A stretch of 64,000 nt of DNA. Origin: Escherichia coli (GTDB lineage: Bacteria > Pseudomonadota > Gammaproteobacteria > Enterobacterales > Enterobacteriaceae). The stretch's first letter is position 1; every line of letters begins with the position of its first letter. Shown here piece after piece: positions 2,421 through 59,831 of this stretch. The stretch is from the NCBI RefSeq assembly GCF_003018115.1, contig NZ_CP027457.1. The stretch is one strand, 5' to 3'. A program made the translations under genes and the position numbers. Below the pieces are notes generated by a model, which saw only the letters and a program-made list of their open reading frames with translations, had not been told where the DNA came from and ran no database searches.

Positions 2421-3809
2421 TCAGATCCGGTCTTTCCACACCGTCTGGATATTACAGAATTCGTGTAAGCCGAAATGGGAAAGCTCACGACCAAAGCCAC
2501 TCTTTTTCACGCCACCAAAGGCCACTCGCGCGTCGCTGGCACAATAACCATTGATAAACACCCCACCGCATTCCAGACGTGCCGCCATCTGTCTGGCCTG
2601 TGTTTCGTCGGTGGTAAAAATGGTCGCTGAAAGGCCGAACTCACTATCATTAGCCAGTTCCAGCGCATGTTCTGCATCTTTCGCAATGGTGATTGCCGCA
2701 ACGGGGCCAAACATTTCTTCCCGAAACGCGGTCATTTCTGGGGTAACATTCGCCAGAACCGTTGGCGGATAGTAGTTACCTGCCCCAGCCATCTTTTCCC
2801 CGCCCAGTAACAAACGCGCACCCTGCGCCAGGGTTTTCTCCACCTGATGATGCAGCTCATCACGTAAATCAAAACGAGCCATTGGTCCGAGAGTGTTCTC
2901 TTCGTCACGGGGATCGCCCATTTTCAAGGCTGCCGCAGCTGCCACAAAACGTTCGGTAAATGCAGAAGCAATTCCCTCTTCGATAATAAAGCGTTTTGCC
3001 GCTGCACATACCTGTCCGGTATTCTGATAACGTCCGGCTACCGCCGCTTTAACCGCCAGTTCCAGATCGGCATCGTTAAGCACAATAAATGGATCCGAAC
3101 CGCCCAGTTCCAGTACGCATTTTTTCAGTGCCGCTCCAGCCTGTGCGCCAATAGCCGCTCCCGCACGAACACTTCCGGTCACCGTGACAGCAGCAATGCG
3201 CGAATCTTTAATCATTTGGCTGACACCGTCGTTGTCGGCATTCAGCCAGCCATATACGCCTTGTGGGATTCCCGCATCTTTAAACACCTGGGCAATGAGC
3301 TGAGCACAGCCCATCACATTCGGCGCATGTTTAAGTAAGTAACCGTTACCTGCAAGAATGATGGGAACAGCGCCACGCATCACCTGCCATAACGGAAAAT
3401 TCCACGGCATAATCGCCAGAATCGTCCCCAACGGTCGATACTCAATAACCGCCTGCTGATTTTCCACCAGCGTAGGTTCCGCCTTCAGCATTGCCGGACC
3501 ATGTTCTGCATACCAGTCACACAAATTCGCCGATTTCGCCACTTCAGCGCGCGCCTGGTTGATTGGTTTGCCCATTTCACGGGTGATCATTTGCGCCATT
3601 TCTTCGCTACGGGCGCGCAGAGCCTTACCGATATCACGCAGTTTTTCAGCACGATAATCTATATTTGTCTCGCGCCAGTCGCGAAAGCCTGCTGCCGCCA
3701 GCTGAAGTGCGTTTTCGATATCATCAGCACCAGCCCACGGCAGCACAGAAAGTTGTTCACCCGTGGCAGGATTTATCGAAATTGCATGAGTTGCCGGAGT
3801 AATGGTCAT
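2421..3809 (-). CDS. sad: NAD-dependent succinate-semialdehyde dehydrogenase
   Basis: 462-aa aldehyde dehydrogenase family ORF (catalytic Cys context QVCAAAKRF, ELGG motif); synteny with glsB and yneJ. Confidence 0.9.
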   Translation of the reverse strand: MTITPATHAISINPATGEQLSVLPWAGADDIENALQLAAAGFRDWRETNIDYRAEKLRDIGKALRARSEEMAQMITREMGKPINQARAEVAKSANLCDWYAEHGPAMLKAEPTLVENQQAVIEYRPLGTILAIMPWNFPLWQVMRGAVPIILAGNGYLLKHAPNVMGCAQLIAQVFKDAGIPQGVYGWLNADNDGVSQMIKDSRIAAVTVTGSVRAGAAIGAQAGAALKKCVLELGGSDPFIVLNDADLELAVKAAVAGRYQNTGQVCAAAKRFIIEEGIASAFTERFVAAAAALKMGDPRDEENTLGPMARFDLRDELHHQVEKTLAQGARLLLGGEKMAGAGNYYPPTVLANVTPEMTAFREEMFGPVAAITIAKDAEHALELANDSEFGLSATIFTTDETQARQMAARLECGGVFINGYCASDARVAFGGVKKSGFGRELSHFGLHEFCNIQTVWKDRI

Positions 3810-17910: not shown

Positions 17911-18306
17911 TTATTCTGAGGCAAAGGCATAGCCTTCATCTTCCCAGCCGGTTATCCCGCCGAGCATGATTTTAACCGGCTTTCCGAGTCGAGCCAGTTT
18001 GAGTGCCGCACGGTCTGCACCGTTACAATGTGGCCCCGCGCAATACACCACAAATAGCGTATCGTCGGGCCATTCGGCCATTCTTTCTGCGGTCATTTGC
18101 TTATGGGGTAAATGGAGAGCGCCTGGGATATGCCGACGCGCGAAGTCCTCTTCACGTCCAACCACATGAAGTAAAACGAAATCATCGCCAATATAAGCCA
18201 GAGAGTCATGAACATCGGCGCAATCTGTTTCGACACTCAAGCGCGCGAGAAAATGCGCCTCAGCAACTTCTGGCTTCGCTGTGGTAAATTCAGTGACATA
18301 ACGCAT
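17911..18306 (-). CDS. Single-domain rhodanese-like sulfurtransferase
   Basis: 131-aa ORF with rhodanese active-site loop context (VVYCAGPHCNGADRAA). Confidence 0.75.
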   Translation of the reverse strand: MRYVTEFTTAKPEVAEAHFLARLSVETDCADVHDSLAYIGDDFVLLHVVGREEDFARRHIPGALHLPHKQMTAERMAEWPDDTLFVVYCAGPHCNGADRAALKLARLGKPVKIMLGGITGWEDEGYAFASE

Positions 18307-18379
18307 ATTGCTTTGTCCTTTTGGTTTGTTGTGTTAACAATAATGTAACTAATCTACCTTTCACTGACCGCCTCTCGAT

Positions 18380-19372
18380 ATGCCAGAAATGAGCAAAATG
18401 ATGACAACGTTACAACGTCCGCTGGTCATTGCACTGGCATATGACGGGCTATGTACTTTTGAATTTGGCGTTGCCGTTGAAATATTCGGCCTGCCACGAC
18501 CGGAACTGGGCGATAACTGGTATCGTTTTGCTGTTGCTGCGGTAGAACCTGGTGCGCTACAAGCCACCGGGGGGATCCACGTGGTTGCAGATGGTGGACT
18601 GGAGTTATTGCCCAACGCCGATATGATTATTATTCCTGGCTGGCGCGGAATAGATGCCAAAGTGCCGGAGATGCTATGCCAGTCATTGCGCGAGGCACAC
18701 CAGCGCGGTACTCGCCTGGTATCAATATGCTCTGGCGTGTTTGTCCTTGCTGCTGCGGGCCTTCTTCATCAGCGAAAAGCAACCACCCACTGGCGCTACA
18801 CTGAACAACTCCAGCACCGTTACCCTTCAATCAGCGTAAGTGATAATGTGTTATATCAGGATGAAGGACAAGTGATGACCTCCGCCGGAAGCGCCGCGGG
18901 GATCGATCTGTGTTTACATATCGTGCGCAAAGATTTTGGTCATGAGATTGCTAATAATGTCGCCCGGCGACTGGTCATTCAGCCACATCGCCAGGGGGAT
19001 CAACCACAAAATCTGACGCGCCCAATGGCCTCACCGCGTGAAAGCCAGACGTTAGGTGCCTTATTCGACTTTTTGCAGCAGAATCTGGCACAAACACATA
19101 CTGTGTCTTCCCTCGCCGAACGGGTAAATATGAGTCCGCGCACTTTTTTAAGACGTTTTGAGGCGTTAACTGGCATGACGCCCGCCCGCTGGCTGCTCAA
19201 TGAGCGCTTAATACGAGTACAGGATTATCTGCAAAATTCGGTTTTTAACATCGAGAAAATTGCCGAGCTGACGGGTTTTGGCAATTCAGCGTTATTGCGT
19301 CATCACTTTCACCAACGTTTTTTATTATCTCCTTCGCAATATCGCAAAAACAGCCGTTCCCCATCACAATAA
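18380..19372 (+). CDS. AraC-family regulator with N-terminal DJ-1/PfpI (class I glutamine amidotransferase-like) domain
   Basis: N-terminal DJ-1/PfpI fold with nucleophile-elbow Cys (RLVSICSGVFVLAAAGLL); C-terminal AraC HTH (SLAERVNMSPRTFLRRFEALTGMTPARWL...). Exact start among several N-terminal Met uncertain. Confidence 0.75.
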   Translation: MPEMSKMMTTLQRPLVIALAYDGLCTFEFGVAVEIFGLPRPELGDNWYRFAVAAVEPGALQATGGIHVVADGGLELLPNADMIIIPGWRGIDAKVPEMLCQSLREAHQRGTRLVSICSGVFVLAAAGLLHQRKATTHWRYTEQLQHRYPSISVSDNVLYQDEGQVMTSAGSAAGIDLCLHIVRKDFGHEIANNVARRLVIQPHRQGDQPQNLTRPMASPRESQTLGALFDFLQQNLAQTHTVSSLAERVNMSPRTFLRRFEALTGMTPARWLLNERLIRVQDYLQNSVFNIEKIAELTGFGNSALLRHHFHQRFLLSPSQYRKNSRSPSQ

Positions 19373-19479
19373 TCGCCTGATTCAGCCTTTGTTTAGATAA
19401 CCTCTGCTAATATCTTTCTCATTGAGATAAAAATTAAGGTAAGCGAGGAAACACACCACACCATAAACGGAGGCAAATA

Positions 19480-19575
19480 ATGCTGGGTAATATGAATGTT
19501 TTTATGGCCATACTGGGAATAATTTTATTTTCTGGTTTTCTGGCCGCGTATTTCAGCCACAAATGGGATGACTAA
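19480..19575 (+). CDS. mgtS: Small membrane protein MgtS (YneM), 31 aa
   Basis: Translation MLGNMNVFMAILGIILFSGFLAAYFSHKWDD; below the ORF-track size cutoff; GGAGG RBS upstream. Confidence 0.85.
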   Translation: MLGNMNVFMAILGIILFSGFLAAYFSHKWDD

Positions 19576-19602
19576 TGAACGGAGATAATCCCTCACCTAA
19601 CC

Positions 19603-19642
19603 GGCCCCTTGTTACAGTTGTGTACAAGGGGCCTGATTTTTA
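19603..19642 (+). terminator. Rho-independent terminator downstream of mgtS
   Basis: GC-rich hairpin GGCCCCTTGT...ACAAGGGGCC followed by TGATTTTTA. Confidence 0.6.
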
Positions 19643-19650
19643 TGACGGCG

Positions 19651-19755
19651 AAAAAAAACCGCCAGTAAACCGGCGGTGAATGCTTGCATGGATAGATTTG
19701 TGTTTTGCTTTTACGCTAACAGGCATTTTCCTGCACTGATAACGGATCGTTGACA
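19651..19755 (-). ncRNA. mgrR: Candidate PhoP-dependent sRNA MgrR; boundaries approximate
   Basis: Minus-strand PhoP-box-like direct repeat aGTTTAagctccGTTTAa at plus 19781-19800, then about 100 nt to a minus-strand terminator (CCGCC...GGCGG plus T8, plus 19651-19676). Sequence identity not verified from memory. Confidence 0.45.
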
Positions 19756-19793
19756 CAGTAGCATCAGTTTTCTCAATGAATGTTAAACGGAGC

Positions 19794-20684
19794 TTAAACT
19801 CGGTTAATCACATTTTGTTCGTCAATAAACATGCAGCGATTTCTTCCGGTTTGCTTACCCTCATACATTGCCCGGTCCGCTCTTCCAATGACCACATCCA
19901 GAGGCTCTTCAGGAAATGCGCGACTCACACCTGCTGTCACGGTAATGTTGATATGCCCTTCAGAATGTGAGATGGCATGGTTATCGACTAACTGGCAAAT
20001 TCTGACACCTGCACGACATGCTTCTTCATCATTAGCCGCTTTGACAATAATGATAAATTCTTCGCCCCCGTAGCGATAAACCGTTTCGTAATCACGCGTC
20101 CAACTGGCTAAGTAAGTTGCCAGGGTGCGTAATACTACATCGCCGATTAAATGCCCGTAGGTATCATTAACCAATTTAAATCGGTCAATATCCAACAACA
20201 TTAAATAAAGATTCAGAGGCTCAGTGTTGCGTAACTGATGATCAAAGGATTCATCAAGAACCCGACGCCCCGGCAATCCCGTCAAAACATCCATATTGCT
20301 ACGGATCGTCAGCAAATAAATTTTGTAATCGGTTAATGCCGCAGTAAAAGAAAGTAACCCTTCCTGAAAAGCGGCGAAATGCGCGTCCTGCCAGTGATTT
20401 TCAACAATAGCCAGCATTAATTCCCGACCACAGTTATGCATATGTTGATGGGCAGAATCCATTAGCCGAACGTAAGGTAATTCATCGTTATCGAGTGGCC
20501 CCAGATGATCAATCCACCGACCAAACTGGCACAGTCCATAAGAATGGTTATCCGTTATTTCTGGCTTACTGGCATCTCTCGCGACCACGCTGTGAAACAT
20601 ACTCACCAGCCACTGGTAGTGGGCATCGATAGCCTTATTGAGATTTAACAAGATGGCATCAATTTCCGTTGTCTTCTTGATCAT
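19794..20684 (-). CDS. dgcZ: Zinc-regulated diguanylate cyclase (CZB + GGDEF)
   Basis: MIKKTTEIDAILLNLNKAIDAHYQWL... with GGEEF motif (RYGGEEFIIIV); 296 aa from internal ATG. Confidence 0.9.
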   Translation of the reverse strand: MIKKTTEIDAILLNLNKAIDAHYQWLVSMFHSVVARDASKPEITDNHSYGLCQFGRWIDHLGPLDNDELPYVRLMDSAHQHMHNCGRELMLAIVENHWQDAHFAAFQEGLLSFTAALTDYKIYLLTIRSNMDVLTGLPGRRVLDESFDHQLRNTEPLNLYLMLLDIDRFKLVNDTYGHLIGDVVLRTLATYLASWTRDYETVYRYGGEEFIIIVKAANDEEACRAGVRICQLVDNHAISHSEGHINITVTAGVSRAFPEEPLDVVIGRADRAMYEGKQTGRNRCMFIDEQNVINRV

Positions 20685-31146: not shown

Positions 31147-31722
31147 CTACGGCAGTGCTGGCCATTCAATATCCTGTGCAGTTGACGTATCAACACGGTT
31201 CAGCAATACCCGATACTTTTTCCATGCTTCCAGCAACGAGATTTCTTCCTCCGTTGCAATTTCCAGATCTGCAGCATCCTGAAGCGGCGCAATATGCTCA
31301 CTGGCTACCTGCATCAGGTTGTTTTTTGTTTCTTCCGCCTCCCGGATCCGGAACAGTTTTTCTGCTTCCGTATCCTTCACCCAGGCTGTGCCGTTCCACT
31401 TCTGAAACTCCCCTTCCGGCGATAACCAGGTAACATTTTCCGGTAACGGACCGAGTTCAGAAATAAATAACGCGTCGCCGGAAGCCACGTCATAAACCGT
31501 TTTACCCCGATGATCTTCAACGAGATGCCACGATGACTCATCACTGTTGAAAACAGCCACGAAGCCAGCCGGAATATCTGGCGGTGCAATATCGGTACTG
31601 TTTGCTGGCAGACCTGTATGAGGCGGAATATATGCATCACCTTCACCAATAAATTCATTAGTTCCGGCCAGCAGATTATAAATTTTTATGGTCCGTGGTT
31701 GTTCACTCATTCTGAATGCCAT
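31147..31722 (-). CDS. tfaQ: Tail fibre assembly protein
   Basis: 191-aa [37 protein letters not shown]...; start overlaps stf stop. Confidence 0.9.
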
Positions 31723-56160: not shown

Positions 56161-56431
56161 GATGTTACCGTAGTATGTGAGTATCCATCGAATAGACACC
56201 AAGCAAAAAAGCTCCCGAAGGAGCCTTCATTTTCACTTTTTTAAATCCAACGACAGACGGCTGGCATTTAAGTATTGTGAAATATTATCAAATGTAATCA
56301 TCATTGATTTACAAAAGATACATTTTGCCCCGAAAGGATTCATGTCAGAAACATCAAAAGATGATGTTCTATACTGGGAACCATGACAACACGGGCATCT
56401 AAAGTGAATATGGTTTGTAATATTGTCTACC

Positions 56432-56644
56432 TCAAAGCGCCACTACATGAACAGCGGCAGGACCTTTAGGTCCGTTCTCAATACCAAATTCAACTTCCTG
56501 ATTCTCAGTTAATGTTTTGAAATCGTTGCTCTGAATTGCTGAGAAATGGACAAACACATCTTTGCTGCCATCTTTCGGCGTGATGAAACCAAAACCTTTT
56601 TCAGGGTTAAACCATTTCACTAAACCAGTCATTTTGTTAGACAT
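56432..56644 (-). CDS. cspI: Cold-shock protein (CspA family)
   Basis: 70-aa [41 protein letters not shown]... with RNP1/RNP2 motifs. Confidence 0.85.
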
Positions 56645-57006
56645 AATTATTACCTTTTGAAGAAATTAGCCCTTGGGCAGAATGGTCCGAAAAAAAATAT
56701 CAGAGAGAAAAACCAACAAGGAAATCTCAAGAGGTACAAATAATAAAATTATAACAATGACTGCTTCAGATAAATTTGTAACAAACCAGAACACCATTAA
56801 CGCATGATTAACCACCCATAGCAAGGATTACTTTTGTAAAGAAAAACACAGCAATGAAAGAATAGCTTTATTTATTAATAAAACGTGTCATTCTGATTAA
56901 GACCTTTTATCTTACCCTTAAGATTTCAGGAATTTTGGCTCATGGAAGAGTCCTTTTTATTTAAATTTTACATTCCGCGATGTAAATGTTCCGATTTAAT
57001 ATTACC

Positions 57007-58952: not shown

Positions 58953-59315
58953 TTGATTTTATTAGTAACAAGTATTTTTTATATTTTAATAATATATTTA
59001 AAGCAGATAATAAAAAACCCGCCTGAGCGGGTTTGAGATTGTGGTGCTTTTTGTGGGAGTCATCCACTTACGCACTTTGTTTTGCCATGCCAGCAGTTAG
59101 CTTCTGCTGTAAAACTATTCATGCAGCAAACCTGCACTTCACCACAATGGTTAGCATACTTTTCCTGATTAAGATTTTGCCAAATATGCTAGCCATTGTT
59201 TCATGTATTGGACCTCCTTACTTTTTATTAAAGAGATCCAATATTCACTACTCTGTCCGTATCTCTACTCAGGCATCAGCCTTCTTCGTTATCGTATACA
59301 GACGAGCGATGAATT

Positions 59316-59531
59316 TTAATCAGTAATGATGACATTTGCTGCTGCAGGACCTTTAGCACCACTCTCTATAGAGAAGGTAACCTTTTGACCTTCAAATAAG
59401 GTTCGATAATTATCATTCTGAATCGCAGAAAAATGCACAAACACATCTTTACTACCATCAACAGGAGAAATAAAGCCGAAACCTTTATCAGCGTTAAACC
59501 ATTTTACTAAACCAGTCATTTTATTTGACAT
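59316..59531 (-). CDS. cspB: Cold-shock protein (CspA family)
   Basis: 71-aa [41 protein letters not shown]... Confidence 0.85.
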
Positions 59532-59831
59532 TCTACATTCCTTAACTTGAGCCTTTCGGCATAAATGGTTTGCATAACAGAAACGACTTCGTACTTAATT
59601 GGAGAGACTCAAAGAAGGAATAAGTGAATAACACCTGAAATGAGAACTGCTTTAGTAAACTACTTCGTATATCGTCTGTTCTTCAAACCGACGCAATCAT
59701 TAACGCATAGTTGAACATATGAAGCAATGTTTATTTTAGACATCCAGCCATCTTCAACCCCATCAAAAAACTATAGCTTTCTTCAGGAACGTGTGTATAG
59801 TGCGCCAAGTTATCAGTATTAAGGAATTTTT

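Follow-up and report, generated by a model that had tools for sequence, protein, structure and literature searches.

In Escherichia coli K-12 the mgtS and mgrR genes are transcribed convergently and in a PhoQP-dependent manner, the PhoQ/PhoP dependence of mgtS-mgtT transcription having been shown with both reporter and RNA-seq data. MgrR is an sRNA that requires PhoQ/PhoP for its expression and Hfq for the repression of its targets eptB and ygdQ, and MgtT, which is co-transcribed with mgtS, has been detected by Ribo-RET and epitope tagging, with no phenotype associated with either its deletion or its overexpression. We analysed the corresponding region in another E. coli strain, within a 64,000-nt stretch of DNA hereafter referred to as the window. 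There is hardly any doubt that positions 19373-19800 are the PhoQ/PhoP-controlled mgtS-mgtT/mgrR locus of E. coli, adjacent to dgcZ and nearly identical to that of K-12. Alignment to MG1655 revealed three substitutions and one end gap in 432 aligned columns (431 window bases), and the order and strands of mgtS, mgtT, mgrR and dgcZ equal those of the K-12 annotation (Table 1). Of 5426 complete E. coli genomes, 5416 contained a match to a 601-nt query from the window, and the matches listed carry annotations of dgcZ, mgtT, mgtS and ftrA. Every element that we checked is present and intact, and the promoter layout is conserved when the window is compared with K-12 and with the Enterobacteriaceae. 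Dependence on PhoP and Hfq, regulatory targets and RNA 3' ends are all taken from the K-12 literature, and we infer them for the present strain because so few differences (three substitutions and the end gap) separate the two sequences. The locus is thus an ordinary and already known one, whose products MgrR, MgtS and MgtT have been characterised in K-12.

Table 1. Features of the mgtS-mgtT/mgrR locus and its surroundings, in window coordinates.
Feature	Position	Strand	Basis and remarks
Candidate PhoP box of PmgtS, GATTCA-gcctt-TGTTTA	19379-19395	+	Sequence; 12 nt upstream of the -10
Predicted -10 hexamer of PmgtS, TAATAT	19408-19413	+	Sequence and conservation across genera
mgtS (yneM) CDS, 31 aa	19480-19575	+	ORF list, NCBIfam, K-12 b4599, RefSeq annotation
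mgtT CDS, 34 aa	19575-19679	+	ORF list, K-12 b4775, RefSeq annotation
Intrinsic terminator of the mgtS transcript, inside the mgtT ORF (about codons 10-23)	19603-19641	+	Fold and Term-seq
MgrR sRNA, 98 nt	19651-19748	-	Rfam RF01407, K-12 ncRNA b4698
MgrR terminator hairpin, nt 72-91	Stem 19677-19658 as scanned, U tract to 19651	-	Scan and fold
MgrR seed U55-A68, UAUCCAUGCAAGCA, identical to K-12	19694-19681	-	K-12 comparison, PMC6239178
MgrR 5' stem-loop, nt 5-35	19744-19714	-	Fold
Predicted extended -10 of PmgrR, TGc-TACTGT	19755-19763	-	Sequence and conservation; TSS 7 nt downstream at G19748
Candidate PhoP box in the conserved register, CGTTTA-acatt-CATTGA, -41 to -25	19773-19789	-	Sequence; 12 nt upstream of the -10 (architecture I)
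PhoP box of the literature and of the first-pass annotation (putative), AGTTTA-agctc-CGTTTA, -52 to -36	19784-19800	-	Motif; 23 nt upstream of the -10 (architecture III spacing)
dgcZ (ydeH) diguanylate cyclase CDS, stop codon 19796-19794	19794-20684	-	NCBIfam, K-12 and RefSeq annotation

The first-pass annotation, made from the letters of the window, had put forward a minus-strand unit of roughly 100 nt as a candidate MgrR, and this identification holds. The Rfam family RF01407 (STnc560) matched 19569-19782 of the minus strand with 281.9 bits (gathering score 55, E = 1.8e-64) over model positions 1-214 of 214, and K-12 mgrR (b4698, 1622817-1622914) maps to the coordinates given in Table 1. Aligning the two RNAs, as had been proposed for a check, gave 97 identities out of 98, the single change being U4C at 19745. 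It falls in the unpaired 5' end of MgrR and C is also the consensus base in Rfam; since the window was 100% identical over MgrR and its promoter to eight of 12 rows spread evenly through the ranking of E. coli matches, U4C is apparently the more frequent allele in E. coli. A 150-nt query with MgrR and its promoter found a match in 5414 of the 5426 complete E. coli genomes, the identity reaching at least 99% in 5408 of 5416 matching records. The 214-nt Rfam model overshoots the 98-nt RNA on both sides. Our literature search retrieved no paper naming STnc560 together with MgrR, and we equate the two because the Rfam match overlaps the K-12 mgrR coordinates.

MgrR displays the anatomy of an Hfq class II sRNA, i.e. 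a 5' stem-loop, a single-stranded A-rich/ARN motif, a Rho-independent terminator and a U tail, in agreement with the description of the K-12 RNA in PMC6239178, where structure probing also agrees with the window in the 98-nt length, the seed U55-A68 and the nucleotide numbering. Folding of the 98 nt yielded -25.9 kcal/mol (z = -2.9), and the A-rich/ARN stretch lies between the 5' stem-loop and the seed. When 29 MgrR homologues aligned with MAFFT were given to RNAalifold, the terminator alone emerged, the 5' stem-loops having diverged too far for alignment; the 5' parts were folded individually in place of consensus folding, and each of the 29 formed a 5' stem-loop with an unpaired A-rich stretch behind it. 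The terminator is conserved across homologues, with changes that are partly compensatory, and the seed is invariant in the alignment, though an 18-mer from the seed region had served to retrieve the homologues. MgrR is convergent with mgtS in the window as well as in Escherichia, Citrobacter, Salmonella, Kosakonia, Kluyvera, Phytobacter and others, and this arrangement is absent in Enterobacter, Klebsiella and Raoultella; therefore, the mgtS context is typical of MgrR without being universal.

On the opposite strand, the ORF previously noted as MgtS (MLGNMNVFMAILGIILFSGFLAAYFSHKWDD) matched the NCBIfam model NF033842 ('protein MgtS') with 79.9 bits against a cut-off of 35 over residues 1-31 of 31, which assigns it to this equivalog, and RefSeq annotates mgtS in a strain identical over the query. 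The candidate promoter PmgtS has the layout (A/G)(A/G)TT(C/A)A-N5-(T/C)GTTTA-12 nt-TAnnAT, which recurs in 37 of the 40 loci where mgtS adjoins mgrR, at least two of the three exceptions being loci that end before the upstream sequence; from the position of the -10 we infer a transcription start near 19420. The strong plus-strand terminator reported behind mgtS was likewise borne out: the hairpin 19603-19633 has 13 pairs and one bulge and is followed by UGA and U5 at 19637-19641, its 61-nt context folds with -23.5 kcal/mol (z = -3.3), and a curated K-12 Term-seq 3' end (1622804, plus strand), lying in identical sequence, maps to window 19638. Our simple terminator scan of 19200-20000 missed this hairpin, probably because of the bulge, and returned as its sole terminator-like site the minus-strand stem 19677-19658 with its U tract, to whose foot (19658) the K-12 Term-seq 3' end 1622824 (minus strand) maps with a very high score. 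Both strands thus carry a hairpin and a U tract, where a K-12 Term-seq 3' end maps onto identical sequence, in line with the convergent terminators described at first pass.

The first-pass annotation did not report mgtT (MNGDNPSPNRPLVTVVYKGPDFYDGEKKPPVNRR), whose ATG overlaps the mgtS stop by one base (TAATG) and which is annotated in RefSeq E. coli genomes. The mgtS terminator lies within this ORF, which also extends in antisense over 29 nt of the MgrR terminator. MgtT matched no model in the NCBIfam search and its 34-aa form occurs only in Escherichia; other genera retain the start overlap and roughly the first 14 residues, the length of the ORF varying from 7 to 46 aa, and it is the terminator stem that encodes the conserved 'NRPL'. 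Conservation of length and sequence beyond the genus, which would speak for selection at the protein level, was not found. The functional status of mgtT is weaker than its annotation suggests, and the mapped terminator inside the gene, together with the restriction of the 34-aa form to Escherichia, is relevant to whether MgtT has a function as a protein or arises as a by-product when translation continues beyond the mgtS stop.

The register of the PhoP box in PmgrR deserves closer attention. With the MgrR transcription start taken from the K-12 annotation (19748), the repeat AGTTTA-N5-CGTTTA (19800-19784, minus strand), which had been proposed as a PhoP box overlapping the dgcZ stop codon (TAA at 19796-19794), occupies -52 to -36, i.e. 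precisely the site given for mgrR in PMC8313858 'by consensus motif identification (Moon and Gottesman 2009)', and it ends 107 nt before the terminator stem (about 100 nt as first noted), with the annotated RNA of 98 nt in between. A second putative register shares with it the half-site CGTTTA (19789-19784) and pairs this with CATTGA (19778-19773) further downstream. We compared both registers in 95 loci from other Enterobacteriaceae, leaving out eight non-enterobacterial loci as chance 18-mer matches (L028, L033, L041, L050, L058, L064, L090 and L098) and excluding from the statistics as contamination L007, a 'Caldithrix' MAG with a K-12-identical sequence. The extended -10 (TG-n-TAnnnT) was present in 90/95 loci, its spacing to the PhoP half-sites being constant, and the shared half-site xGTTTA scored 5/5 in 91. 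An automatic scan placed the CATTGA half-site in register in 94 loci, and the remaining one, L079, fits by eye; its consensus (C/T)(A/G)TT(G/T)A is matched at three or more of five positions in 83 loci, always in constant register, with T at positions 3 and 4 in 94 and A at position 6 in 83. The distal half-site AGTTTA (19800-19795), the one that overlaps the dgcZ stop, reached at least 4/5 in only three of the 95 (E. whittamii, a divergent 'E. coli' and S. enterica diarizonae). Among Escherichia three loci show a good fit to the consensus, and among the two Salmonella loci one does; elsewhere the fit is poor. A scan for sigma-70 -35/-10 pairs in 19200-20000 found none, as would be expected of activator-dependent promoters that do without a -35, and we do not take this result to speak against promoters. 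CATTGA was also considered as part of a -35 element (TTGAGA) and rejected, the spacer to the -10 being only 10 nt.

These data raise the question of whether the operative PhoP box of PmgrR might be CGTTTA-N5-CATTGA (19789-19773), rather than AGTTTA-N5-CGTTTA as its core, a proposal to which we give not quite an even chance. It is favoured by the conservation of the shared and proximal half-sites across the 95 loci, the distal one being rarely kept; by the position of the proximal half-site, exactly 12 nt from the TG-extended -10, an architecture that the mgtS promoter of the same locus also appears to use and that corresponds to the 11-12-nt position of the box in 12 of 23 mapped Salmonella PhoP promoters (Zwir et al. 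2012); by E. albertii, in which the distal half-site no longer stands in 11-bp phase; and by the many genera, indeed most of them, without dgcZ upstream of mgrR. The recorded site, moreover, derives from motif identification and not from a footprint, and our literature search found a footprint for neither register; a further search on the mgrR promoter found one paper, which gives no information on the box. On the other hand, the distal pair fits the consensus better in E. coli (10/10 core positions vs 8/10), its 23 nt from the -10 is a legitimate architecture III spacing (21-23 nt; Zwir et al. 2012), the distal half-site is invariant across E. coli and close to consensus in one of two Salmonella loci, and all three in-phase half-sites could be used. 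If the -41 to -25 register were the operative one, AGTTTA would be either a lineage-specific third half-site or a by-product of the ...Arg-Val-stop codons. In any event, the recorded, motif-based site has only one half-site in common with the repeat that is conserved in the 95 loci at 12 nt from the -10. The overlap between box and dgcZ stop that had been called tidy does exist, but it may lie outside the core operator, the distal half-site being poorly conserved and the proximal CATTGA conserved.

Two further explanations of the minus-strand elements were weighed. The DgcZ protein scored 518 bits with NCBIfam NF007380, passing the equivalog cut-off, and the scan of 19200-20000 revealed no terminator of dgcZ's own before that of MgrR, so dgcZ transcripts probably run through mgrR. 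The MgrR terminator being the only terminator-like site on the minus strand past the dgcZ stop, the small RNA might be conceived as the 3' UTR/terminator region of dgcZ, released by processing only. This is disfavoured, and indeed highly improbable, given that a dgcZ ahead of mgrR is restricted to Escherichia and some Citrobacter, and the candidate promoter with PhoP box and extended -10 keeps its fixed distance in 95 loci mostly devoid of an upstream dgcZ. K-12, for its part, annotates an independent ncRNA with its 5' end where the -10 predicts it, the PhoP/PhoQ dependence of K-12 MgrR points the same way, and at the 3' end of MgrR the Term-seq signal exceeds that of the opposing mgtS terminator about a thousandfold. 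Still less credit can be given to the idea that the repeat and hairpins arose by chance between genes. The 64-kb window contains a single GTTTA-N6-GTTTA where 0.07 would be expected, which is only modestly improbable (seven of 100 shuffles had at least one match), but this explanation is excluded by the Rfam score and the K-12 annotation, by conservation in about 95 species and by the 3' ends already published.

Taken as an independent PhoP-controlled sRNA gene facing mgtS, mgrR would form with it a pair of activator-dependent promoters, in each of which a PhoP direct repeat would replace the -35. At low Mg2+, phosphorylated PhoP would activate PmgtS, whose mRNA encodes the 31-aa membrane protein MgtS, which raises intracellular Mg2+ via MgtA and PitA, together with the translationally overlapped 34-aa MgtT, the majority of the transcripts presumably ending at the hairpin 19603-19641. 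PhoP would also activate PmgrR, producing from 19748 to 19651 the 98-nt Hfq-dependent MgrR, whose single-stranded seed (nt 55-68) would pair with and repress eptB, ygdQ and other mRNAs. The terminated mgtS and MgrR transcripts have 3' ends ~12-20 nt apart and do not overlap. It is tempting to speculate, even if we consider it rather unlikely, that the locus is more interlocked than annotated, through read-through of the terminator in mgtT, antisense overlap and coupling to dgcZ. As the Term-seq 3' end lies at mgtT codon 22, full-length MgtT would come only from read-through of the mgtS terminator, and terminated mgtS transcripts would present a non-stop mgtT message to ribosomes. A read-through mgtS-mgtT RNA would be complementary first to the MgrR terminator and then to the body of MgrR, so the two PhoP-induced products could interfere via RNA duplex formation or polymerase collision. 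To judge from sequence comparison, a third PhoP half-site may have arisen in Escherichia over the stop codon of dgcZ, and since dgcZ lacks a terminator before mgrR, there could be a coupling between PhoP occupancy, read-through from dgcZ and the output of MgrR.

Among known systems, the K-12 locus is the closest. Its MgrR shares with that of the window the A-rich/ARN stretch, the seed, the terminator, the U8 tail, the promoter and the PhoP repeat, all of them identical, and its mgtS-mgtT operon has the same PhoP box, -10 and terminator. The window MgtS differs from K-12 b4599 by V11I; MgtT is 100% identical to b4775 (YP_010051185.1) over 34 aa, with the same TAATG stop/start overlap. The upstream context of the operon differs, ftrA and a rhodanese-like gene lying between ydeE and mgtS in the window and being absent in K-12, and homology with K-12 restarts at 19380, the second base of the candidate mgtS PhoP box. 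Repeats of the type (T/G)GTTTA-N5-(T/G)GTTTA, placed 11-12 or 21-23 nt from the -10, were found at PmgtS (12 nt) and at PmgrR (12 and 23 nt). The spacing at PmgtS is that of architecture I of Zwir et al. (2012), and both promoters resemble the Salmonella PhoP promoters of architectures I and III in combining direct-orientation repeats with the lack of a recognisable -35. In contrast to those promoters, which have one box each, E. coli PmgrR carries three in-phase half-sites.

The stretch around 19373-19800 is an E. coli locus that is already known; what the first-pass annotation observed there is confirmed and its interpretation supported. A 601-nt query (19300-19900) found matches in 5416 of 5426 complete E. 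coli genomes, with 100% identity in three records; ftrA, mgtS, mgtT and dgcZ are annotated under the matches listed, and in one identical record the gene order is ydeE, a rhodanese-like gene, ftrA, mgtS and mgtT, followed by dgcZ and ydeI on the opposite strand. K-12 MG1655 features were placed by the alignment offset between window 19400-19830 and the K-12 stretch, which show three substitutions and one end gap in 432 columns: a single mgtS leader base, MgtS V11I (19510) and U4C (19745), the sole difference within MgrR. The 31-aa MgtS ORF is indeed present and scores 79.9 bits with the NCBIfam equivalog model (cut-off 35). Between ydeE and mgtS (17911-19372) the window carries the rhodanese-like gene (17911-18306, minus strand) and ftrA (18380-19372, plus strand; NCBIfam FtrA, 557 bits), in place of which K-12 has 26 unrelated nucleotides; homology restarts at 19380, with base 2 of the PhoP box of mgtS, and the 3' end of ydeE shares only 82% identity with K-12.

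Features of the locus, with window and K-12 MG1655 coordinates
Feature	Window	Strand	K-12	Remarks
mgtS	19480-19575	+	1622646-1622741	K-12 MG1655 annotation
mgtT	19575-19679	+	1622741-1622845	K-12 MG1655 annotation
ncRNA mgrR (b4698)	19651-19748	-	1622817-1622914	K-12 MG1655 annotation
dgcZ	19796-19794 (stop codon)	-	1622960-1623850	K-12 MG1655 annotation
PmgtS PhoP box, GATTCA-gcctt-TGTTTA	19379-19395	+		12 nt before TAATAT (19408-19413)
PmgrR first half-site, E. coli CGTTTA	19789-19784	-		5/5 in 91/95 loci
PmgrR second half-site, E. coli CATTGA	19778-19773	-		T3 and T4 kept in 94/95; A6 in 83/95
TG extension of the PmgrR -10		-		90/95 loci
Upstream half-site of the first-pass annotation, AGTTTA	19800-19795	-		at least 4/5 in only 3/95: E. 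whittamii, divergent 'E. coli', S. enterica diarizonae

The minus-strand unit of about 100 nt, for which the first-pass annotation had proposed MgrR, is MgrR: K-12 b4698 maps onto it as a 98-nt RNA, and the whole window, scanned against Rfam, gave a single match at the locus, RF01407 (STnc560; 19569-19782, minus strand), which covers the full model and scores 281.9 bits (gathering score 55). The family overshoots the RNA because K-12 mgrR covers model positions 35-132 only. The 214-nt match takes in 34 nt of promoter (including the -10 and one PhoP half-site), the mgtS 3' end and the mgtS terminator in complement. The 5' hairpin that the model predicts at its positions 18-31 falls in promoter DNA, outside the RNA. 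Folding gives the 98-nt MgrR a stem-loop at the 5' end (nt 5-35), an A-rich middle left open and, ahead of a U tract, a terminator hairpin (nt 72-91); the numbering of the RNA agrees with published structure probing (PMC6239178) of G41, the pairing region U55-A68 and an (ARN)5-like A-rich motif. MgrR plus its promoter matched 5414 of 5426 complete E. coli genomes, with at least 99% identity in 5408 of 5416 matching records. The mgrR feature is visible only in the curated K-12 record, since PGAP leaves the ncRNA unannotated; none of the PGAP-annotated RefSeq E. coli records inspected carries it. Elsewhere in the window Rfam matches above the gathering score were IS009 (31181-31379, minus strand; 220.9 bits) and two cspA-type thermoregulator leaders (56405-56790, 112.8 bits; 59300-59692, 158.8 bits; both minus strand), which suggest cold-shock-protein paralogues further along.

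The MgrR seed, UAUCCAUGCAAGCA, lies at 19694-19681, and a search for the 18-mer AATCTATCCATGCAAGCA in a single genome from each species yielded 106 DNA stretches, eight of them chance matches outside enterobacteria and one further a K-12-identical 'Caldithrix' MAG, evidently contamination. In 29 diverse homologues the distance from predicted start to U-tract end is 91-104 nt, and all 29 form a 5' hairpin, which differs in sequence among them (-7 to -22 kcal/mol), and behind it an A-rich stretch that stays unpaired; the terminator is kept, with partly compensatory changes. Enterobacterial mgrR and mgtS occur on contigs labelled 'Caldithrix sp.' (that MAG, L007, SMXE01000224.1) and 'Chryseobacterium sp. 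18061' (L097), both of which look like contamination or mislabelled public assemblies. Enterobacteriaceae bacterium RIT691 (L015) has two MgrR-like copies (seeds at 1438-1455 and 3032-3049, minus strand) about 1.6 kb apart with near-identical bodies, only one having the PhoP-box promoter; the sequence upstream of the other is unrelated.

Both terminators described in the first-pass annotation were recovered. The plus-strand one after mgtS is a hairpin (19603-19633) followed by UGAUUUUU, with -23.5 kcal/mol and z = -3.3 for its 61-nt context; the minus-strand one (stem 19677-19658, then a U tract) was the sole terminator-like site reported by the terminator scan within 19200-20000. Curated K-12 Term-seq 3' ends (Adams et al. 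2021, supplementary file 1) at 1622804 (+) and 1622824 (-) translate to 19638 and 19658, within the two U tracts, in flanks identical to the window; their scores are 2,596 and 2,434,090, respectively, about 1000-fold apart. The convergent transcripts thus terminated have 3' ends 12-20 nt apart, without overlap.

The first-pass annotation did not see mgtT, a 34-aa ORF whose ATG lies in a TAATG overlapping the mgtS stop codon and whose product is identical to K-12 b4775. In K-12 this gene came to light when stalled initiation complexes were subjected to ribosome profiling, and tagging confirmed it; mgtS and mgtT share a PhoQP-dependent transcript, the mgtT product is not membrane-associated, and deletion or overexpression gave no phenotype. 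The mapped mgtS terminator lies within it, the 3' end at 19638 falling in codon 22 of 34, so that terminated transcripts hold a stop-less mgtT and full-length MgtT needs read-through to 19679. Its last 29 nt are antisense to the MgrR terminator, and it is the G+C stem of the mgtS terminator that codes for the conserved 'NRPL'. In other genera the T(A/G)ATG overlap is seen again, as are the first ~14 residues, but the ORF stops after 7 to 46 codons; the 34-aa form is kept within Escherichia only, and NCBIfam holds no model for MgtT.

That MgrR is merely a product of the dgcZ 3' UTR is unlikely. The terminator scan found no terminator for dgcZ before that of MgrR, so dgcZ transcripts probably continue through mgrR and their 3' UTR probably carries the whole MgrR sequence; PmgrR is nonetheless conserved in species without dgcZ, which argues against such an origin. 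Escherichia and some Citrobacter are the only lineages with dgcZ upstream of mgrR, so the half-site's overlap with the dgcZ stop, built from the codons for Arg-Val-stop, is a lineage-specific detail.

According to K-12 work, low Mg2+ activates PhoQ/PhoP, and PhoP turns on both PmgtS and PmgrR. MgtS raises intracellular Mg2+ via MgtA and PitA. Hfq binds MgrR at the U tail and the A-rich motif, and MgrR pairs by nt 55-68 with the eptB and ygdQ mRNAs. As all functional elements are identical, we infer that this mechanism would hold in the window strain too.

Two further points, both minor, are the status of mgtT, an ORF with a working terminator inside, and the register in which PhoP would bind at PmgrR. 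No sigma-70 -35/-10 pair was detectable by promoter scan in 19200-20000, which fits the appearance of activator-dependent promoters. The direct repeat noted earlier, AGTTTA-AGCTC-CGTTTA, is present at 19800-19784 (minus strand), its first half-site overlapping the dgcZ TAA, and the 64 kb of the window hold a single GTTTA-N6-GTTTA where 0.07 would be expected. The repeat spans -52 to -36 from the annotated MgrR start, G19748; this agrees with the literature, since PMC8313858 documents the mgrR PhoP site at identical coordinates, by 'consensus motif identification (Moon and Gottesman 2009)'. Comparison of 95 non-redundant loci anchored on the -10 revealed an invariant layout, xGTTTA - 5 nt - (C/T)(A/G)TT(G/T)A - 9 nt - TGn - TAnnnT. 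Upstream of mgrR E. coli thus has three in-phase half-sites, and the 11-bp phase of the upstream one is lost in E. albertii. At PmgtS the box/-10 layout is kept in 37 of the 40 loci where mgtS adjoins mgrR. The conserved -41 to -25 register, which pairs CGTTTA with CATTGA, may be the core PhoP site of PmgrR, a tentative reading to which we give slightly less than an even chance. Among the PhoP-box distance classes of Zwir et al. (2012), this conserved repeat, 12 nt upstream of the -10, has architecture I, the layout of mgtA and phoP, whereas the recorded repeat, 23 nt upstream, fits architecture III (21-23 nt from the -10).
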